64,000 nt of DNA from Alphaproteobacteria bacterium (GTDB lineage Bacteria > Pseudomonadota > Alphaproteobacteria > CAAHEQ01 > UBA3637). The notes below the pieces were generated by a model. The model had not been told where the DNA came from. It did not search any database and worked only from the letters and a program-made list of their open reading frames with translations. Below are positions 2,162 through 52,466 of this stretch, piece by piece. The position numbers and the translations under genes were made by a program. The first letter of the stretch is position 1. Every line of letters begins with the position of its first letter. The DNA lies in assembly GCA_045660045.1 (NCBI GenBank), contig JAZRDB010000007.1, positions 5,180 through 69,179 of the forward strand, read 5' to 3'.

Positions 2162-2192
2162 CAAAAAAAGAGGGCCAATGGCCCTCCTTTCT
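2162..2192. terminator. Bidirectional intrinsic terminator between convergent genes
   Basis: GAGGGCC-AAT-GGCCCTC hairpin at 2170-2186, with an A7 run on one side and a T-rich tract on the other. Confidence 0.6.
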
Positions 2193-4798
2193 TACATTGG
2201 TGTACAATTCCCCGTTCCCGAACATTTATAACGATCAATGCTAGACTTGCTTGGTTTATTAATAATCACCAAATAGCCAGAACTCGACGTCCTTTTGGCC
2301 TTAAACAGCTTCGTCGTTGTATTCCCCGGACAATAAAAATCACTCCACGTACACTTGTCCTGTATACAAATTTCACCATTCCACGTTTTCTTCACTGTCC
2401 CCGCAGAATCGGCAACTTTTCCACTAAAACGAGCGCTTGTGTCTGTTGCCGAACTAAATGTTCTGAAACATTTATTTGGGCACAACCAAACATTTGCATA
2501 TGTATCTGTGGTTGCCGTTTTACCAGATCCTTTGCACGCTTTACATGCGGTGCCATCCTTATAACATTCCGCATTGCAAGTAAAGGATGTTGCGTCCTTG
2601 CCAGAACATGTGGCACAAGATGGGCAATTTTGACACGTGCCATTAAGAATCACCTTTCCGCTTGGACAGAAACAAGCGCTTGCTGCCGTTTTGGCTGTTC
2701 CATCTGTTGTTTTCCCATTGGGGCATTTCGTGGCTCCCGTATTTGCTATCACATCTTTATACCACCCCTTTGCAACAGCCGTACATTCAGTTGCACCGCT
2801 TTTAAGTTCATATCCTTTTTGACACAGACAATTGCTTGTTGATGTGCTGCCTGTGGATGTAGTTGTTGTGTTGGCTCGCCAATCGACGCATTTTTTGGTC
2901 CCAGTGTTTCCTACAACATCTTTATACCATCCCACAGCAACAGCCGTACATGCAGTAGCACCACTTTTAAGTTCATAACCTTTTTTACAAACACAAGAAC
3001 TTGTTGATGTACTGCCTGTGGAGATTGTCGTTGTATTGGCGCGCCAATCAACACATCGTTTGGCGCCCGTGTTTCCTATAGTATTTTTGTACCACCCTGT
3101 GAAAACGGCCGTACAGACCCCTTCTACCATTTCATATCCTTTGTCACAAACACAAGACCCTACACCTTGATTGTTGCCACCATCACAAACTTTATTGGTA
3201 TCGCATGCCGTACCCGCAGCAGCGGGCGTATATACCGCATTTGTTCCCGAAGATGTACATTTTGTTGTACAAGTATCCGCCACAAATCCATCACACCCAT
3301 TTTTACAAGTTTCATCCGATCTCATCACATAACCACTATCACACACCCATGTACCCCTTTCATTATCATTATTTGGATCTCCACAATGCTTATGAGTACT
3401 TGGATTGTTGCCCCAATATCTGTCAACAGGCGCATAAGTATAAACCGCTGTGTGATTCTCTACCCTACATGCTGTTTTACACGTTGTGGCTGTAAAATTA
3501 TTACATGTTTCTATTGGTTTACATTCACCATCATCACATTGTTCGGTTCCTGCACAAGTGCTATCCGCATCACAAACGCAGGTTTGTTTGTCTTCATCCC
3601 AAAAGGGCAGTTTTGTATAACTTCCCTCACCACATTCAAAACAGGTAGACGACGCCCCACGATTATAGGCTGCACCATGGTAACCGTCATTACATTCACA
3701 TTGTTGAGTCTCTTTGTTATACGTTGACTTTCCATCGTTACAAGCCAGTTCACACATATGACTGTCCTCATTACAATATTCGTTACTACCACAGTCGCCA
3801 TCTGTTATACATTCAACACATTGTCCATTATATGCATAAGGTCTGTTGGTCGGACAAGTTGGGCAATTTTCATCGGGATCACAAGCACAGCATTGATTTC
3901 CTTCACAACACTTTTGCCCCTCTTCGCAATCATTGTCAATGTCACAGGCTCCATTGACACATGTACAGGAAGCATCATATAATCCCTTTCCAAGTTCGTT
4001 GGTGCACTGTTCGCCAACCTTCAAACAATCGCATGAGGTGTGATCACTATTCACCACCAACGGAGCCTCGCACGTGTCACAACTTGAATTTTCTGTTGTT
4101 GTTTCTTCCGTACGATATGTGTTACCCGTACAAGGTTTACATGTTTCATCACATGTGCCATATCCCGTTTTATAATACCCCGCACGGCACGTTAACACAC
4201 CATCCGAAACGGATCCTCCACTTGGGATTGTGCGTTCTGGACACCCATCTTCATTCGGATCCTCCTGACTCTGTTGGGGCCTCCACCAAGGATATAAACC
4301 ATGCAAATGATATCCTGGACTTTTTTGGAATAAATATTGCAACACATTCTTTGTTTTGTCCTTTTGGCAAGCTGTAATTTTTTTCCCTGTATCATCTGTT
4401 ATGGCTATTAACCCAATTTCGCTTGTTTTTTTCTCACTTGATTGTATTTCTCGCGACTTTTTTAACATGCTTTCACACACTTCTTGGGTCAACGCATCTG
4501 TCTTCACCCAAAAATAATTGCTCATAGGTCCATCAATACCGTTTTCCACTTCCAAGCCAATGCTGTGCGGACCCTCCCTGGAAATTTTATCTTGCGCATT
4601 TGATGGCTTTGCTTGCAAAGCGTGTTGACGAATCACAGCTTCTTCCATCACCGCCGTCGTCAAATCTTTGGCTATCACGTCAGAACGTAACAAGCCCCAA
4701 ACATGGAATCCTCCCAATGTCAACAACATTAACAGGGCTAACACCCCTAACATTTCCAACATACTGCGTCCAGATTCGTTCTTCTTGTTTTTCTTCAT
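2192..4798 (-). CDS. Cysteine-rich modular prepilin-like surface protein (868 aa)
   Basis: AAGGAG SD precedes ATG 4798. The N-terminus MKKNKKNESG/RSMLEMLGVLALLMLLTLGG has a basic tip, a Gly, a Glu at +5 and a ~20-residue hydrophobic helix, matching the class III (type IV prepilin) signal pattern. About 76 of ~78 Cys (hand count) lie after residue ~190, in CxxC, CxC and C-x-G-Y motifs. There are three 55-aa tandem units near the C-terminal third. Confidence 0.8.
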   Translation of the reverse strand: MKKNKKNESGRSMLEMLGVLALLMLLTLGGFHVWGLLRSDVIAKDLTTAVMEEAVIRQHALQAKPSNAQDKISREGPHSIGLEVENGIDGPMSNYFWVKTDALTQEVCESMLKKSREIQSSEKKTSEIGLIAITDDTGKKITACQKDKTKNVLQYLFQKSPGYHLHGLYPWWRPQQSQEDPNEDGCPERTIPSGGSVSDGVLTCRAGYYKTGYGTCDETCKPCTGNTYRTEETTTENSSCDTCEAPLVVNSDHTSCDCLKVGEQCTNELGKGLYDASCTCVNGACDIDNDCEEGQKCCEGNQCCACDPDENCPTCPTNRPYAYNGQCVECITDGDCGSNEYCNEDSHMCELACNDGKSTYNKETQQCECNDGYHGAAYNRGASSTCFECGEGSYTKLPFWDEDKQTCVCDADSTCAGTEQCDDGECKPIETCNNFTATTCKTACRVENHTAVYTYAPVDRYWGNNPSTHKHCGDPNNDNERGTWVCDSGYVMRSDETCKNGCDGFVADTCTTKCTSSGTNAVYTPAAAGTACDTNKVCDGGNNQGVGSCVCDKGYEMVEGVCTAVFTGWYKNTIGNTGAKRCVDWRANTTTISTGSTSTSSCVCKKGYELKSGATACTAVAVGWYKDVVGNTGTKKCVDWRANTTTTSTGSTSTSNCLCQKGYELKSGATECTAVAKGWYKDVIANTGATKCPNGKTTDGTAKTAASACFCPSGKVILNGTCQNCPSCATCSGKDATSFTCNAECYKDGTACKACKGSGKTATTDTYANVWLCPNKCFRTFSSATDTSARFSGKVADSAGTVKKTWNGEICIQDKCTWSDFYCPGNTTTKLFKAKRTSSSGYLVIINKPSKSSIDRYKCSGTGNCTPM
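2714..3115 (-). repeat. In-frame 165-nt tandem repeat, about 2.4 copies, inside the 868-aa gene
   Basis: Copy boundaries fall at the Cys codons at 3115, 2950 and 2785. Each unit encodes CTAV..GWYK....NTG..KCVDWRANTTT.STGSTSTS.C.C.KGYELKSGAT. (55 aa). The third copy diverges after about 24 aa. Confidence 0.85.
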
Positions 4799-4807
4799 TT
4801 TTTCTCC

Positions 4808-7249
4808 TTATGCTCGTTTCAAATATTCTTGAACCAGTTGATCTACGTCTGTAATTTCAGATTGTAATTTTTCCGCCAATAAAATATTTTTACTACCAGA
4901 TGAATAAACTTTCAAATAGGATCCTAAACCGGACAAATCTACATCTAAAATAACAGATTCATGGATGGCCGGTCGGCTGACCAAAATAGCGTATTTTCTG
5001 TCCGCCCACTCTTTGCCTAGAATAAAGTTTAATTCACGCGGTGTCAAGTTCCATGTTGCATAATCGGATGGGTTCGCCTGTGGATTTCGGAAGAAAACGA
5101 CTGTTTGACATTGACCACGAATCACATCACCCAAGCCCGCTTCATCCAAAAATTTCGGTTGCTGGAACGCACAAAGATATGCTTGACGTTTTTTACGTCC
5201 TTCTCGAAGCCCTACGATAAAGCTTTCTTTAAACATTGGGTGTTCCAACATTGGCGCCGTTTCATCGATCATAATCATACTGGGCGCACCGGTTGAACTG
5301 GCCAATTCATCAATACGGTGCATGATATAGCTGATGACCGCAGGCGCCAAAGATTTATTGCTATCATTAAAGATGCTTGTAAAATCAAACGCCACATAAC
5401 GGTTTGTTAAATCCAGATTGTCTTCAGGCGAGTTAAAAATATTACCATATTGATCCGGATCAATCCATCTGTTCAATTCACGACGCATATAACCGTTTGG
5501 CGCAAAACACGCTTTGTATAAATTCTTTAACATACGATCACTTTTCGGCAAATACTCAAAAGCCGTCACAACCGCACGAGCAATTTCAGTTTCAGAAACA
5601 GCATCCTTTCCTTCTGTGATATCGCGCAACCAACCGCGCAAAAAGGCTCTGTTCGGCAAATTATCTTCAATTAAAAATGGATTTAAAGAAACAGATTCCT
5701 CGCCATCAAACTTGATGTATGGCGCCCCATTCACCACAGCAAAAACCTTGGCACCTTTATTACGATCAAAGAAGTATGTATGCAAATCTGGGATACGCAT
5801 TGCCTGAGAGGCAATAAAGCTGAAGAATGTTGTTTTACCTTGACCGGTCGGACCAATCAAGGCGGTATGTGCCACTGCGTACTGTTCCTCTGTAACATGG
5901 AATTGGAAAGCATACGGCGTTCCGGTAATCGTCCTAAAATAAGATAACGGAACCGGACCCCAGTCTGATTTCTTGCGACCTTCGGACGGTTGATCAATCA
6001 TCGTCGCACAGGCAACCACATTGGAAAGGTATAAATATGTTCTTGGGTACACATCATAGGTTGGGAATTGGTTAAAGAAAACAGCCTGTGCGGACCATCC
6101 CTCACGCACCGGTGTCACGTTATGAATACGACAAATACGCTCTACCTCTTCTTGACCAAACTTCAATTCGTCAGGCGAATCTCCATATAAAATCATGGAC
6201 ATTGCATATTCATTTAATGTTTGGCTGTCCGCGTCCGTGGCATCCAACGACGCCAACGCTTCATTATATTGGTCCAACACGTTTTGAGAAAAACTTGTCA
6301 TATAGGCCATTTTACGTTGGTTAAGTAAAAGTGCTGTCGACTTGGACATTGGAACAGCTTTAATATTATGCAAAAAGACCATTTCCATATCAATGCTCAA
6401 CAAATCCGCCACCATTTGTTCGTCCATATAATCACCCGGCTTTCTTATCCCCATCATGATGGCTAATTTTTCTCGATCACCCGCAAAGAAACGCACAATT
6501 CCTTCGTCCTTGGTAAAATGAACGTAATCTGATGTTAAAAGCACATTCAAATAATCGCCTTGTTCTCCATGAATAAGCGGCTTTGGACGAGAAAGCGGAC
6601 TTGCCAACCGAGCAAACACCCATAAAGGACTTCTATCTTCTTGATTTACACCTTCTTTTTCTGTTAACAAAACGGGATTATACATATCCAAAATGGAAGT
6701 CAACGCATTGGATGCCTGTTCTAAATCACGCATAGCTTCCTTACGATCGTTCACGCTGATAATAATGTAGTGACGATTTTTAAAGATACGATGCATATTT
6801 TCCATCCACAATTCATCGATCTTGTGTAATAATTTGTTATCTTGAAAGGCCTCCATTGTGTCTAATTGAACTTTATCGCGCACCGTCATCATGCGCACAA
6901 CAATTTCCAATTCTGCCATAGAATCAATCCAGCGTTTTCTGGCACTTGTCAAGGATACACGATCTTCCGGAGCCATCAAGGTGCTGTCTACACCTTTTAC
7001 CTCAAACACACGCGCCAACGCACCATTTCTCAGATGAATAGTTGCGCCATCTTCATCTAATTTTTCAAACGGCAAAAAGTCGGAAAGACGTGTTTCTTTT
7101 GGCTTTGGCAATACCCACTCACCAATTTTTGTCACGGATGCAAACGCCAACAACACGGCAGATATCAACCCCAAAACCGCCAAAACCATCGGAGTCGAGG
7201 TAGCGCTCGTCAAGATAAAATCAATTATGTTCGCGTCTATATTATTCAT
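4808..7249 (-). CDS. virB4: Type IV secretion system ATPase VirB4/TrbE/CagE family
   Basis: 813 aa with an N-terminal TM segment. It has Walker A LIGPTGQGKTT, Walker B-like MIMIDETAP and GRKKRQAYLCAFQQP. AAGGA SD. The start lies 12 nt after the virB3 stop. Confidence 0.85.
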   Translation of the reverse strand: MNNIDANIIDFILTSATSTPMVLAVLGLISAVLLAFASVTKIGEWVLPKPKETRLSDFLPFEKLDEDGATIHLRNGALARVFEVKGVDSTLMAPEDRVSLTSARKRWIDSMAELEIVVRMMTVRDKVQLDTMEAFQDNKLLHKIDELWMENMHRIFKNRHYIIISVNDRKEAMRDLEQASNALTSILDMYNPVLLTEKEGVNQEDRSPLWVFARLASPLSRPKPLIHGEQGDYLNVLLTSDYVHFTKDEGIVRFFAGDREKLAIMMGIRKPGDYMDEQMVADLLSIDMEMVFLHNIKAVPMSKSTALLLNQRKMAYMTSFSQNVLDQYNEALASLDATDADSQTLNEYAMSMILYGDSPDELKFGQEEVERICRIHNVTPVREGWSAQAVFFNQFPTYDVYPRTYLYLSNVVACATMIDQPSEGRKKSDWGPVPLSYFRTITGTPYAFQFHVTEEQYAVAHTALIGPTGQGKTTFFSFIASQAMRIPDLHTYFFDRNKGAKVFAVVNGAPYIKFDGEESVSLNPFLIEDNLPNRAFLRGWLRDITEGKDAVSETEIARAVVTAFEYLPKSDRMLKNLYKACFAPNGYMRRELNRWIDPDQYGNIFNSPEDNLDLTNRYVAFDFTSIFNDSNKSLAPAVISYIMHRIDELASSTGAPSMIMIDETAPMLEHPMFKESFIVGLREGRKKRQAYLCAFQQPKFLDEAGLGDVIRGQCQTVVFFRNPQANPSDYATWNLTPRELNFILGKEWADRKYAILVSRPAIHESVILDVDLSGLGSYLKVYSSGSKNILLAEKLQSEITDVDQLVQEYLKRA

Positions 7250-7261
7250 TCAATTCCTTTG

Positions 7262-7555
7262 TTATGGCGCCAGCTTTACACCCCGCTGCTTGTAAATGTT
7301 ATGGCTTGTCGCTGGACCGTTTGTTCCCCACGCTTGCAACATATGGGATAGGTGGGGTTCTCGTGTGCCTGCAATAACCAAAAAAATATGTCCAAGTAAA
7401 ATTGTAATCAATGAAACCAATGGGTTTACATTAAACATACCAATCAAGATAAACATCCACGCCGCCTGAATTACAAAGTTAGCCATGGCGGGAATAAATG
7501 GTGCCAAGAAAATACGGGGCGGCATAGCAACTGCTCTTAAAATTGGTTCGCGCAT
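7262..7555 (-). CDS. virB3: VirB3-like small inner-membrane T4SS protein
   Basis: 97 aa with two hydrophobic segments. The pattern EPILRAVAMPPRIF...ANFVIQ...GHIFLVIAGTREPHL matches the VirB3 layout, and the gene sits directly upstream of virB4. GGAGA SD. Confidence 0.65.
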   Translation of the reverse strand: MREPILRAVAMPPRIFLAPFIPAMANFVIQAAWMFILIGMFNVNPLVSLITILLGHIFLVIAGTREPHLSHMLQAWGTNGPATSHNIYKQRGVKLAP

Positions 7556-45783: not shown

Positions 45784-45929
45784 AATGTTGTTTTGATGTA
45801 AATCGAAGCATAACACATGTGGGGCAGGCGCCCTTTGGGTGTTCCAGAGGATCGCTTCCGGTGTGCCAAAAAATGAGTTTTGGCATATTATCCCCGCAGA
45901 GGAATAACTGGAAGAAGAAAGGATTTAAA

Positions 45930-46697
45930 ATGTCTATTCCAACAATTACTATGCGTCAGCTGATTGAAGCTGGTGTTCACTTTGGGCATAATGCCCGCAG
46001 ATGGAACCCAAAGATGGCTCCTTATATTTATGGTACACGTGAAGGTGTGCATATCATGGATTTGAACCAAACAGTGCCGATGCTCTATCGCGCCATGGAA
46101 GCAGTTCGTGATGTTGCCGCCAAAGGTGGTAAAATCTTGTTTGTTGGCACAAAGGCTCAGGCTCGTGAGTTGGTCGCGGATGCTGCGGGTCGTTGTGGTC
46201 AGTTCTATGTCAATCAACGTTGGTTGGGCGGTATGTTGACCAACTGGAAAACAATTTCTGCCAGCATTAAACGCTTGAAAGATATTGAATCTAAACAAGA
46301 AAAGGGTGCCTACGAAGGTTTAACAAAGAAAGAAAAGTTAAACATTGAACGCGAACGTGAAAAATTGATGGCCTCTTTTGGCGGTATCAAAGATATGAAC
46401 GGTCGTCCAGACATTGTGTTTGTGATTGATGTGCCACACGAAAGTTTGGCCGTTTCCGAAGCCAAGAAGTTGGGCATTCCTGTGGTTGCTATTTGCGATT
46501 CCAATGCTAACCCAGATGGTATTGCTTACCCAATTCCGGGTAACGATGATGCCGGCAAAGCAATTGCTTTGTACTGCAACTTGATGGCCGGTGCTGCTTT
46601 GGATGGTATCCAAGCTGAACTGAAAGCCGCTGGCGTTGATGTCGGTGCTGCCGAAGAAGTCAAAGAAGAGGTTGTTGAGGCAGAAGAGAAGGCATAA
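45930..46697 (+). CDS. rpsB: 30S ribosomal protein S2
   Basis: Start refined to ATG 45930. The product begins [27 protein letters not shown]. Confidence 0.97.
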
Positions 46698-46698
46698 T

Positions 46699-47277
46699 AT
46701 GCTTGATGAGTCTGTAAAAAGAATTTTGGATTCTCCCGTGAATTTGCTTCGTCCCTCAAGCGAAACAGAAAGGCAATTACTTTTTCCAAAGAACTGCAAG
46801 GGTGTTTTTTATACCATAGGATTGCAATCTGGACAAAGTTTTGTGGCACAGTTTCCGGGACACAATGAACAGGATGATCCATTTTCTTTGGACAACTTTG
46901 CTTTTTTGTTGCGCCCGTTGAAAAATTTAGTGCCGCAATTAGAGGAAGTTAAGTGGTTATTTACGGGTAGCATTGCTGGGTCTGGAACACGGACGATTTG
47001 TGAGTTGACTCCTGAAACAACAAAGCAAGAAAGAGTGGTTTTGGAGAATATATTTGCATCACATGAGGTGCAATCGAATTATTCCGGCAGACGATCTTAT
47101 AGTCATCATGAAATGTTTGTTAAGTTGCACGATGTATATAATCAATTGATGGAAAACGATCGCTTGAAACATGCATTGATGGTGGGACAACAAAGACTTC
47201 ATGATTTAATGATAGAAAAAAAAGATAATAATCCAGCAAATCCAGTGATCCGACGCACAGAGAACGAAAGGGGCTAA
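46699..47277 (+). CDS. Hypothetical protein, paralog 1 (192 aa), inside the rpsB-tsf operon
   Basis: The ATG lies 1 nt after the rpsB stop. The N-terminus MLDESVKRILDSPVNLLRPSSETERQL...GVFYTIGLQSGQSFV parallels the next gene. Confidence 0.7.
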   Translation: MLDESVKRILDSPVNLLRPSSETERQLLFPKNCKGVFYTIGLQSGQSFVAQFPGHNEQDDPFSLDNFAFLLRPLKNLVPQLEEVKWLFTGSIAGSGTRTICELTPETTKQERVVLENIFASHEVQSNYSGRRSYSHHEMFVKLHDVYNQLMENDRLKHALMVGQQRLHDLMIEKKDNNPANPVIRRTENERG

Positions 47278-47283
47278 GCAAAA

Positions 47284-47910
47284 ATGGCAGAACAATCTGT
47301 AAAACAAATTTTAACAGCTCCCATTGTTTTTCTTCGCCCTTCAAACGAAGAAGAGAGAAGGCTTTATTGTGATCAGCCGAATGGTGGATGGTTTTATACG
47401 TTTGGTTTAAAATCTGGTATCAATTATGTAACGCGCATTGATAAAAAAAGAGATGTGTTTACATTTCGTCCTTTAGATAGAACTATCACGACTCCGTTGG
47501 TGCAATTTCAGTGGAAGTCTACACGTACAGAATTTCCTGCGCTTTTCCCTGAGTTTGATGTTGTTTGTCAAACAGCTCCCGGAACATCGCAAAAAGAGAC
47601 AGAATGGTTTGAAAAAATTTTGGGACCGTCAGCGGAAGAATTAAAAGTTAAAGCAGCATTTGGTCTTTTGCAAACAACGTGCTATCGTTTTCATTACCCA
47701 GAAGTATTGACGAAAGTGGTGGCCATAAAGAAACAAATAAAAGAAAATGAATACTGGCAACGACAAGCATTGAAACAGGAAAAAGAGATAAAAAGAATAT
47801 TGCTAAAGGGGCACGCAAAATTACAAGAATTGATGATCCCGAATAACTCTACACAAAACAAAATCGTTCAACAAAAAACAATACAAGAAAGGAGAAAACA
47901 AAATGGCTGA
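47284..47910 (+). CDS. Hypothetical protein, paralog 2 (208 aa), inside the rpsB-tsf operon
   Basis: The N-terminus reads MAEQSVKQILTAPIVFLRPSNEEERRL...GWFYTFGLKSGINYV. The stop overlaps the tsf start by 8 nt. Confidence 0.7.
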   Translation: MAEQSVKQILTAPIVFLRPSNEEERRLYCDQPNGGWFYTFGLKSGINYVTRIDKKRDVFTFRPLDRTITTPLVQFQWKSTRTEFPALFPEFDVVCQTAPGTSQKETEWFEKILGPSAEELKVKAAFGLLQTTCYRFHYPEVLTKVVAIKKQIKENEYWQRQALKQEKEIKRILLKGHAKLQELMIPNNSTQNKIVQQKTIQERRKQNG

Positions 47911-48787
47911 AATTACAGCAAAATTAGTTGGCGAACTGCGTGAAAAAACAGGCGCCGGAATGATGGAATGCAAAAAAGCATTGGTGGAAACAAATGGTGA
48001 TTTGGAAGCTGCTATCGACTTTTTGCGTAAAAAGGGTATGTCCGTGGCCGAAAAGAAAGCCGGTCGTGTGGCGAACCAAGGTGCTGTCGGTGTAAAGGTT
48101 GCTGGTAACAAAGGTGCTATGGTGGAAGTCAATATTGAAACAGACTTCGCTGCAAAGAACGCCGATTTCCAAAAGTTTGTACAAGATGTGACCGAGGTGG
48201 CTTTGAATGGCTCCAATGACGTGGAAGCATTAAAAGCAACAGCGATGAATGGTTCCACTGTTCAAGAAAACGTAGTCGCTTTGATTGCCAAAATTGGCGA
48301 AAACATGAGCTTGCGTCGTGTCGCCGTTGTGGAAGGAGAAACAGTTGTCCCTTACTTGCATACAACATTAGGCGATGATTTATGCAAAATTGGTGTGTTG
48401 GTTGGCGCAAGTGGTGCAAACGCCGCCGAAGTTGCTAAACAAGTGGCTATGCACATTGCCGCAACAGCTCCAAAATTCTTGAGCGTAGCGGATGTGGATG
48501 CTGAAACAGCGGCCCATGAACGCGGTATCTATGCCGAACAAGCCAAAGCCAGTGGCAAACCAGAAGCCATTATTGAAAAAATGGTGGAAGGCCGTATGCA
48601 AAAGTTCTATCAAGAAGCAGTGTTGTTGGAACAACCCTTTGTGATGGATCCAGACAAGAAGGTCAAAGACGTGTTGGCTGCGGCCGGCGTGACTGTGACA
48701 TCTTTTGCTCGTTTTGCTTTGGGCGAAGGCATTGAAAAGAAGCAAGAAGATTTTGCCGCCGAAGTGGCTGCGCAAATGAATGGTTAA
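47903..48787 (+). CDS. tsf: Elongation factor Ts
   Basis: 294 aa beginning MAEITAKLVGELREKTGAGMMECKKAL. Confidence 0.97.
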   Translation: MAEITAKLVGELREKTGAGMMECKKALVETNGDLEAAIDFLRKKGMSVAEKKAGRVANQGAVGVKVAGNKGAMVEVNIETDFAAKNADFQKFVQDVTEVALNGSNDVEALKATAMNGSTVQENVVALIAKIGENMSLRRVAVVEGETVVPYLHTTLGDDLCKIGVLVGASGANAAEVAKQVAMHIAATAPKFLSVADVDAETAAHERGIYAEQAKASGKPEAIIEKMVEGRMQKFYQEAVLLEQPFVMDPDKKVKDVLAAAGVTVTSFARFALGEGIEKKQEDFAAEVAAQMNG

Positions 48788-50106: not shown

Positions 50107-52300
50107 TTAGTATGGACATTGGCTTATAGATGCCCATTTAAAGCATTCGCCACTGCTGTTTGCACTAGACCAACCATTTTTGCCGCAGGTTCCATTGTGT
50201 TGATTGTTATCTGTTCTGCATTGGTTTCCATCCGCTTTCCAGTTGCTATTATACTTTGCCCGGCATGCAGCATTTAAGGTCATACAGCCTCCGCTTCCAT
50301 CTGAGCAATAGGTACAACCGCAGGTTTGATTGACACAGACTTCGCAAGTTCCACTGCTGTTACATGTATATGCTGTACTACATCCATTTCTCGTGTTGGG
50401 TTCGCAGGCATAACATGATGTGGCACTTGCAACACCATAAGTACAATATTGGCAAGCACCATTAATAAGTGCGTAGTTGGCCTGACATGAACATAATAGC
50501 GTGTTGTCATTATGAGTGGCATTTGTATAACAGTCGCAGTCGGTATGATTACTGTTTGCTGTTCCGGCACCACAATTAACACAAGAACTACCAGCTTTGC
50601 TTATTGTATTGTTTTGACAAGGAGAACAAGTCGTGCCAACCAATTCATATCCCGCTGGACATACACAGACACTGTCTTGTAATTCGAAATTATCTGGAAC
50701 TGGAGCCTTACCAACAACGACACCACGCACAAGAATAGTCTGAATTTCCCCAAAAGAATGCCTCTCCATCGGATTGACGGCGAGGTGGTACACCATTGAC
50801 ACATAATCCAGAAACAGTTGTTCCAGGATTTTTGCCAGCCAAGTGAGTGCAATATCCTTGATAGCAACGGTATTCGCCAGCACCGTGTACGCAGCCATCG
50901 CCATTAGTTCCTTTAGAAAAGCAAGAATGAAATGGCGAGCAACAGTGACCGGAACAACTTGTGTCATCTGATTTGTTCCAACACCACTCTTTACAAGTGT
51001 GCGTTGTCGTGTCACAAACTGTGCGTCCATCCGTTTTGTTGGCACAATTAGCATTGGAAAGACATTCAACGCAGGTGGTTTTAAAGATTTGAGGATATCC
51101 ATTATTGCAAACACAACTGCCATTCGTGAGAGGGCTAGCATTTGTGTAGCAGGTACAAGCTGTTTGTGTCCCGTTCGGCGTGCCAGCCCCACAAGAAATC
51201 GAGATGTTGTTTGGACAGATGGTGCCGGCTGGACACGATGTTTGTTCCGATGATCCTTCTGGACAATATTTTCCGGGATCACACGCTGTTGGCTCAATGG
51301 ATCCTTCTGGGCAATAAGATCCCTGTGGACAATTTTCGGGGATAGTCGTGTTGTCTTCGTCACAGAAGCTTCCGGCGGGGCAGGGTGTACAAGTTTTGTT
51401 AACTGGATCTAATACATAGCCAGCTGGGCAATAACATCCCGATTCGTCTGACGTCTTTAAAAAAGGAGCCGTGCAGTTGAAAGTATCGCCAGATCCCCCT
51501 GGACAAGTGGCATATTCTGGACATTCAATGCAAACGCCATCGACCAGATAATATCCGGATTGGCACTTGGTGCAAACATCCTCGGCTTGGTCACATTCGG
51601 AACATGACTCGGGACAACAATTTCCCTTTTTACATCCACCTTTTGTGACGCATTCGCCTTGGAAGCAAACTTGATCGTCAGTACAATCACACGACGGCGG
51701 ATCAACACAGATACCGTTTTGACAAGAACGTGAGGCAGGACAATCGGAATTGCTTGAGCAGGTCTTTGGAATATAACTGCCTTTTGCCCCTGTGTTTTTT
51801 GAAAAAGTAACTTGAATAGTGTTGGTGCTATCACATTCTGGTGCCCCGACAATTTGGCCTTTTGTGTTTTGTTCCGTTGATATTTTATAGGTTGTATTAT
51901 TAACCTTAATTCGATCAGCCCCAGCCCAAGATTGTCTTAACAATCTTTTGCAGGTTGGTTCATTAATGTCCCCTACAAAATAAGAATAATAATAACCATC
52001 AGCTTCTTCTGAAGCGGTTATTTCTTTGCCATTTCTTGTGGCCGTCACAAATTGACCTTCTACATTTTTTTTGGCGTTCTTATCAAATAAATCGGTTGCA
52101 AATAATTTTTTTTGACCTGGTTTGCCCTCCTGATTTAATTTGCCTCTGGCCATCAAATCGTCGTGAATAATTGCGGCATCGTGGGAAGCCATAGCCCATT
52201 GGTAAATTTTAAGACCACCTAATGATATTAGCGTCATAAGCGCAAAAATGGCAATCATTTCCAACAAACTGCGCCCAGATTCATTTAAAGATTTTTGCAT
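50107..52300 (-). pseudogene. Second cysteine-rich modular prepilin-like gene, split by a 1-nt frameshift (about 730 aa if repaired)
   Basis: True start ATG 52300 (AGGGAGA SD), with leader MQKSLNESG/RSLLEMIAIFALMTLISLGG. The Cys-rich frame of track ORF 50708-52444 continues in the frame of ORF 50107-51363. Deleting one base in the TTTTGGGG tract (50748-50755) joins ...DGEAFF to GEIQTILVRGVVVGK... Contains repeats of the type CPAGSFC, CPQGSYCPEGS and CDPGKYCPEGS. Confidence 0.7.
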
Positions 52301-52390: not shown

Positions 52391-52466
52391 AGGCACATAC
52401 TTCCTGAATAAATGAAATCGGGTGGGGCTCCAAAAGAGCTCCACTTAAATTTTAAAAGGAGAAAAA

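Follow-up and report, generated by a model that had tools for sequence, protein, structure and literature searches.

On the minus strand of the 64-kb window (the whole stretch of DNA analysed here), from an uncultured gut-type alphaproteobacterium, a gene lies between uppS, frr and tsf at one end and rimP, nusA, ylxR and infB at the other; its coding sequence seems to be divided between two reading frames. According to the original prediction, the two frames part within a short T4G4 tract, and the break was ascribed either to a recent inactivation, or to a homopolymer sequencing error, or to an on/off switch of a surface protein. The locus raises two questions: what kind of protein is encoded there, and is the break in its frame a regulatory device, a mutation, or an error of assembly?

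One gene in two reading frames

Frame A starts at an ATG at 52300, upstream of which stands GGGAG, and ends at a TAA at 50710-50708, giving a protein of 530 aa; the mechanical ORF of this frame reaches farther upstream, to a GTG at 52444. Frame B, in +1 relative to frame A, is open from 51363 to 50107, its stop being a TAA at 50109-50107. The frame-A protein is found in a public collection as P0001, encoded on an NCBI contig of 105,940 bp, where it forms a singleton cluster. The features of the gene are as follows (the arrow stands between positions -1 and +1 of the leader).

50107-52300, minus strand: whole disrupted gene, composed of frame A and frame B; the intact orthologues P0002 and P0005 span both parts
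52258-52300, minus strand: predicted class-III (prepilin-type) signal, MQKSLNESG↓RSLLE, with G9 at -1 and E14 at +5; a hydrophobic alpha1-N helix comes next
51761-52300, minus strand: putative pilin module, type IVb-like, aa 1-180, from a profile search, an AF2 model and PDB matches
50711-51760, minus strand: Cys-rich modules of frame A, with CPxGxYCPEG repeats at about 51390-51215
50662-51251, minus strand: strain-specific middle cassette of 590 nt, its limits taken from a blastn comparison between the window and L001; the frame break falls within it
50748-50755, minus strand: T4G4 tract, present as predicted, with the frame change located elsewhere
50708-50728, minus strand: frame-change zone GCGTGGTGTCGTTGTTGGTAA, placed by change-point likelihood and calibrated frame scores, including the TAA at 50710-50708
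50107-50709, minus strand: C-terminal part in frame B, 200 aa, not in the frame of the start codon; its last 184 aa are kept in P0002

The leader reads MQKSLNESG↓RSLLEMIAIFALMTLISLGG. The first 180 residues or so hold just three Cys, and dense Cys repeats follow, among them CPAGSFCDED, CPQGSYCPEGS, CDPGKYCPEGS and CPAGTICP. The predicted architecture (a leader, a Cys-poor pilin-like domain and then dense Cys repeats) is borne out by the sequence, the Cys-poor part being about 180 aa long, and the same is true of the proposal that the gene is a paralogue in kind of the one encoding an 868-aa protein at 2192-4798 of the window.

The two ORFs overlap by about 650 nt, and dual coding in the overlap was considered. 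We rejected it, as the composition of the protein accounts for the open frame: Leu, Ile, Val and Met make up only 8% of its residues, so that there are few xTA or xTG codons and, in consequence, few stops in the +1 frame. When the codons of the overlap were shuffled, the mean number of stops was 1.9 and the probability of finding none was 0.06, while nusA, taken for comparison, gives about 10 stops per 218 codons.

The N-terminal part is a putative type IVb-like pilin module

The N-terminal sequence, NESG9↓RSLLE14MIAIFALMTLISLGG, has the Gly at -1, the Glu at +5 and the hydrophobic stretch of a class III signal. G9, R10 and E14 are invariant in an alignment of seven sequences (A3); in a larger one of 52 sequences (A4), R10, S11 and E14 are invariant and G9 nearly so (at least 90%). 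With E of at most 1e-3, the profile built from the N-terminal 180 aa of A3 matched more than 1400 proteins, mostly of 120-270 aa. The small pilins among them carry the motif NESGRSM[IL]EMLGVLAIIGVLS, also given as NESGRSM[IL]EMLGVLAIIGVLSVGG, and many of the matched proteins had already been annotated with Pfam Bundlin (PF05307) and PilS_N (PF08805). Those that bear a name come from MAGs of Alphaproteobacteria or Rickettsiales and are called Tfp pilus or PulG-like proteins. The Pfam pilin models themselves (N_methyl PF07963, PilS_N PF08805 and Bundlin PF05307) gave no match to the protein studied here even at E up to 10, and N_methyl was detected in two of seven relatives, with a best E of 6e-4.

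In the AF2 model of the module (pLDDT 82, pTM 0.74) a helix of 50 residues, from 8 to 57, is followed by six strands of a beta-sheet, in agreement with the pilin fold, where a long N-terminal alpha-helix packs on an antiparallel sheet. The structural matches to this model are weak, all with E above 0.001 in Foldseek. The best of them is the ETEC type IVb pilus 9iuf_A (probability 1.00, TM 0.49, E 8e-3), and the next ones are TcpA of V. cholerae (8uhf) and CofA of ETEC (3s0t). The module resembles type IVb pilins (BfpA, PilS_N, CofA, TcpA) in that its profile relatives carry PF05307 and PF08805 and that the CofA and TcpA filaments are its closest structural matches. It differs from them in that identity is only 13-14%, no Pfam pilin model is reached, and the whole protein is far longer than a major pilin. 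Its leader is also not the usual class-III leader, which is G↓F(T/S)LIE. No genes for pilus machinery were present among the window ORFs scanned, which cover part of the 64 kb, nor next to the gene.

A long Cys-rich part follows the pilin module

Past residue 180 the protein continues with Cys-rich modules, about 350 aa of them in frame A and 200 aa in frame B. The repeats had been likened to the ephrin-receptor-like/GCC2-GCC3 repeats of eukaryotes. The likeness of the pattern holds, the CPxGx[FY]CPxG spacing being that of the eukaryotic Ephrin_rec_like/GCC2_GCC3 family (PF07699), and, beyond the orthologues, the best database matches of the protein are eukaryotic PF07699 proteins. A match to the PF07699 model, on the other hand, did not appear with the full protein, with the repeat segment, with P0002 or with P0005, and for this gene not even at E up to 10, so what is shared is a likeness of pattern and composition only. 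No Pfam model at all reached its cut-off on this protein; the 868-aa paralogue of the window does match PF07699, scoring 27.1 bits where the cut-off is 23.1.

Pilins in which a pilin module is joined to extra modules, such as PilB and PilC of Streptococcus sanguinis and CofB of ETEC, have been described as modular pilins; more than 1200 such proteins in 264 architectures were listed, with 860 residues as the extreme, and the grafted functional modules are probably exposed at the tip of the filament (Raynaud et al. 2021, PMC8179133). Like these, the protein encoded here begins with a class-III signal and a pilin module and has bulky further modules in its C-terminal part. Unlike in them, the modules form a chain of 350-700 aa of Cys-rich EGF/furin/ephrin-receptor-like units, which in this protein are not recognised by Pfam; in addition, the leader is G↓RSLLEM and no pilus machinery adjoins the gene. 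The best explanation of the sequence and of the structural model is that the gene encodes a modular type IV(b)-like pilin with a long stalk of disulfide-rich modules, and its product is presumably an adhesin displayed by a type-4 filament. A relative in L003 has further sequence, not rich in Cys, after its Cys-rich part.

The downstream frame belongs to the same, normally continuous gene

It had been proposed that frame B is part of the same coding gene, and this is what a comparison with orthologues demonstrates: the C-terminal module of frame B is 83% identical, without a gap, to the C-terminus of P0002. This protein of 650 aa is encoded by a single ORF in a syntenic position, between a partial upstream ORF and uppS/frr. 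The first 1049 nt of its gene are 90% identical to frame A, and its last 555 nt are 84% identical, again ungapped, to the part of frame B that begins at 50661 and runs to its stop. In tblastn the matching frame passes from A to B somewhere in 50789-50661. The second syntenic orthologue, P0005 (868 aa), which adjoins rimP-nusA-ylxR-infB, is a single ORF as well, and a core CGAGTAN..HTDCDCYTNATH..TLLCSC is common to frame B, P0002 and P0005. Two further close relatives, P0003 (690 aa) and P0004 (841 aa), lie at other or unknown loci and are also intact single ORFs. The shift is absent from all four uninterrupted relatives. Since the syntenic orthologues are single ORFs covering both parts, the gene of the window is, on this comparative evidence, the disrupted form of a gene that is normally continuous.

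Over 552 nt of downstream frame B compared with P0002 there are no gaps and no stops, all Cys are kept, and dN/dS is 0.16 with a dS of 0.62; the corresponding values for 612 nt of the N-terminal part are 0.13 and 0.23. This substitution pattern shows the downstream part to have been under purifying selection in the past and argues that the break is young. Among the explanations originally offered, it is the recent inactivation that such a low dN/dS fits. The C-terminal part could also be imagined as a separately translated ORF, an idea which we rejected: around the junction frame B has no start codon with a Shine-Dalgarno sequence, and a fragment of about 200 aa with about 30 Cys, having neither leader nor signal peptide, would be cytoplasmic.

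The frame changes downstream of the T4G4 tract

The tract consists of T4 at 50755-50752 and G4 at 50751-50748. The prediction that removal of one base from it would fuse the two ORFs is correct as far as the arithmetic goes, for a one-base deletion there yields an ORF of 730 aa; the tract as the site of the break is not upheld by codon statistics. We relied on these statistics because homology could not place the break precisely. The alignment with P0005 supports frame A down to about 50789. Apart from P0005 no protein has a related cassette tail, and its alignment across the junction is not significant. Placement by homology was tried and discarded: MAFFT pairs SCAWCRC-GKAPV with LLVWCRVFDEPGKGPK of P0005, and the likeness of AWCR..GKAP to VWCR..GKGP is not significant (shuffle p about 0.2-0.4).

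A change-point scan of codon usage had its maximum for a switch at 50728-50713, placing the change at about 50728-50710, and a switch at T4G4 was about 10 nats worse. A codon model was then trained on three independent family genes, those of P0005, of the paralogue in the window and of the member from L003. The 13 codons between the tract and the stop (WGNSDYSCAWCRC, 50752-50714) score +11.6 for frame A under this model. In a calibration within the gene, true-A windows scored 13.6±5.2 and true-B windows -20.2±5.9, and none of 170 true-B windows reached the observed value. A sliding-window codon scan had the same outcome. If the frame did change in the tract, the stretch that follows would have to be read in frame B as GEIQTILVRGVVVG, which is aliphatic and free of Cys, unlike the remainder of the mature protein. 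By codon usage, the frame change is shown to lie at about 50728-50708, some 25-45 bases downstream of T4G4. The assembled sequence at the junction, within 50650-50800, is GCGTGGTGTCGTTGTTGGTAAGG, and a 36-mer of the assembled junction allele is TGTGCGTGGTGTCGTTGTTGGTAAGGCTCCAGTTCC.

Within GCGTGGTGTCGTTGTTGGTAA the longest run of one base is two. The lesion there would be a +1 shift, brought about either by the gain of 1 nt or by the loss of 3n+2 nt, within some 20 nt upstream of the TAA at 50710-50708. As P0005 has about 75 more residues around this point, a deletion seems as plausible as an insertion.

Neither a switch nor recoding is supported

If T4G4 were the lesion or the switch after all, one could invoke phase variation by slipped strands, an error in the homopolymer or a +1 slip on UUU-U. 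Besides the 730-aa ORF that a single deletion restores, such a reading could draw on UUU-U permitting tRNA-Phe to re-pair in the +1 frame and on GGAGAGG standing 5 nt upstream of the tract. We nevertheless consider it highly improbable, given the scores and the aliphatic stretch described above. Moreover, homopolymer tracts of contingency loci typically have at least 7 nt, far more than the 4-nt runs here, and runs of at least four bases occur 36 times in the gene, T4G4 being among them. The two A8 runs of the gene, both upstream, are in frame.

The on/off switch is not supported: the break is outside the tract, the tract is just 4+4 nt long, neither a repeat nor a +1 re-pairing codon is present at the site, and four relatives are intact. 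No long simple-sequence tract was found at the frame-changing position 50728-50708, where no run exceeds 2 nt. A homopolymer sequencing error has likewise lost its basis, there being no homopolymer at the site of the break.

Two pilins, of 530 aa and of about 730 aa, would come from one gene if ribosomes shifted by +1 in a programmed way or if the UAA were decoded out of frame. The geometry would suit it, as the frame changes within about 20 nt of an in-frame stop, like at +1 sites of the prfB type, and the downstream frame is under purifying selection. At UGU-UGG-UAA-G, though, neither UGG to GGU nor UGU to GUU can re-pair, no Shine-Dalgarno-like stimulator (GGAGG) is present in the 15 nt upstream of the stop, and the shift is not conserved, the four closest relatives being single-frame. 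We regard this reading as very improbable indeed. The same low standing is given to a variant in which the break is real but partly bypassed: termination at UGG-UAA-G would be slow, and Lys-tRNA would read AAG out of frame, in a Ty3-style +1 event which does not require P-site slippage. If this were true, the cell would make mostly the 530-aa pilin and a minority of full-length pilin of about 730 aa with the conserved distal module, and a filament-tip adhesin encoded at a cassette-swapping hypervariable locus would have a built-in ratio control.

What the gene shares with phase-variable contingency genes and with prfB-type +1 sites is that the coding sequence of a surface protein spans two frames and that an in-frame stop stands where they meet; what sets it apart is that long repeats, a re-pairing codon, a stimulator and conservation in orthologues are all missing. 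With neither a long repeat nor a codon able to re-pair in +1 at the site, and with relatives that do not share the shift, the sequence supports neither phase variation nor programmed frameshifting.

Mutation or error of assembly

Two readings remain to be weighed. The first is that the break is a recent, unprogrammed and genuine truncating mutation of a fast-evolving surface gene, to which we assign a probability of about one half. As assembled, the gene would then give a 530-aa pilin devoid of the conserved distal module of about 200 aa. Inactivation of genes is common at hypervariable loci of surface proteins, and the frame is disrupted relative to the intact syntenic orthologues P0002 and P0005. 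Elsewhere in the window some 60 ORFs stand close together and unbroken; as there is no second split gene among them and the two A8 runs are in frame, indel errors appear to be rare in this assembly.

The second reading, the main rival, is that the true gene is intact, with about 730 aa, and that metagenome assembly of a strain-variable cassette introduced an extra base or a small mis-join; it is tentative, and we hold it to be somewhat unlikely. It would explain why the downstream frame is perfectly preserved: a lack of decay is expected of an error and of a very recent mutation alike, so the break is either very recent or not real. The break also falls inside a cassette which differs between close relatives, consensus sequences of MAGs are least reliable in strain-variable stretches, and the sequence is a single-sample singleton. 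Against an error speak, apart from the intact ORFs and A8 runs, the lack of a homopolymer or repeat at the site of the break and of repeated k-mers in the gene that could cause a mis-join. Neither silent donor cassettes nor intragenic repeats, either of which could be a source of gene conversion or mis-joining, were found in the window.

Independent assemblies were sought as well. A scan of genome contigs for a second assembly of the strain gave only distant family members, a scan of metagenomes only the P0005 lineage (L006 and L007), and an exact-sequence contig look-up for P0001 no match. Weighing the above, we infer a biological break rather than an artefact of assembly, and a recent truncating mutation is the reading we prefer.

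The gene lies at a hypervariable locus

The flanks of the gene are 89-95% identical in DNA to those of L001 and L002 (about 92% for L001), and the gene between them is a mosaic. The cassette at 51251-50662 is 590 nt long, a length not divisible by three, and shows no homology at the DNA level to the middle stretch of 349 nt in the L001 orthologue. In L002, identity of 89% extends over 4.6 kb of infB-nusA-rimP and up to about 95 nt into the gene, and synteny ends downstream of this point. Past the shared start, the P0005 protein and the protein studied here are 32-39% identical in amino acids. The dS values of the N-terminal and C-terminal parts differ threefold.

A word-index search with A2 found no homologues of the cassette, and an exhaustive phmmer search of its segment 50711-51073 against 1.84 billion representatives returned only the query and unrelated Cys/Thr-rich repeats. 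A single tRNA-Ser was the only RNA element detected in the window.

This mosaic points to recombination and to diversifying selection acting on a protein that would be exposed at the surface. The locus is almost wholly different between genomes whose flanks are 89-95% identical, as is expected for an adhesin exposed to a host or to phages and kept under diversifying selection.

Significance for the gene family

The frameshift itself carries little weight: it affects a single surface-protein gene, disrupted or mis-assembled, in which nothing points to a switch. Of more interest is the family to which the gene belongs. Uncultured Alphaproteobacteria, among them at least one MAG from the human gut (Hadza), possess many pilins with an NESGRSxxEM leader, some of which appear to be extended to disulfide-rich proteins of 650-870 aa resembling eukaryotic modules of the ephrin-receptor/EGF type. 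They would add a so far unrecognised architecture to the catalogue of modular pilins.

The pilin locus is hypervariable between close relatives

When we compared the pilin locus (50107-52300) with the corresponding loci of two metagenomic relatives, L001 and L002, it proved hypervariable. The housekeeping DNA flanking the pilin gene is 89-95% identical to both relatives. Relative to L001, the gene itself is a mosaic in which a cassette has been replaced, with dS of 0.23 in the N-terminal part and 0.62 in the C-terminal part; its product shares only 32-39% amino acid identity with that of L002, where synteny with uppS downstream of the pilin gene is also gone.

Candidate slippage sites in the pilin gene

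A frameshift or switch had originally been proposed at a T4G4 tract (50755-50748). The longest homopolymers of the gene are two A8 runs, in frame within the pilin module, and these would be better slippage candidates than T4G4. In L001, the orthologous gene has A7 and A8 in their place.

52106-52113, minus strand, A8 run
52065-52072, minus strand, A8 run

A tandem ORF pair separates rpsB from tsf

Usually, rpsB lies directly beside tsf. Here, the interval (46636-47910, plus strand) holds a tandem pair of mutually similar ORFs of about 190-210 aa each, whose N-termini contain VKRILDSPVNLLRPSSETERQL and VKQILTAPIVFLRPSNEEERRL, respectively. A Pfam search with the second ORF gave no match.

45819-46697, rpsB, left border of the pair
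47903-48787, tsf, right border of the pair

The 868-aa paralogue follows a virB4-like gene

In T4SS operons, the slot after virB4 is usual for pilus-tip or minor-pilin genes. The paralogue gene lies 9 nt downstream of a VirB4/TrbE-like ATPase gene, in the same orientation; the 97-aa ORF upstream of the latter matched no family.

2192-4798, minus strand, 868-aa paralogue, leader NESGRSMLEM, above the Pfam Ephrin_rec_like cut-off
4808-7249, minus strand, VirB4/TrbE-like ATPase gene (PF03135)
7262-7555, minus strand, 97-aa ORF

Further family members

One family member, of 733 aa, comes from an alphaproteobacterial MAG of the Hadza gut (L003, 3673-5874); it has the leader NESGRSLLEM, as in the window gene. 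Its middle part is Cys-rich; the C-terminal ~200 aa are not, and by eye they resemble a vWA-type module, which makes them a candidate for one. Two intact close relatives are encoded outside the rimP/uppS locus:

L008, 2825-5350, P0004 gene (841 aa)
L009, 305-2377, P0003 gene (690 aa)

The gene order around the former is murJ, two unknown ORFs, a DUF192 gene, P0004 and rplM. Given these positions of P0004 and P0003, these giant pilin-like genes are dispersed among housekeeping genes, outside pilus operons.
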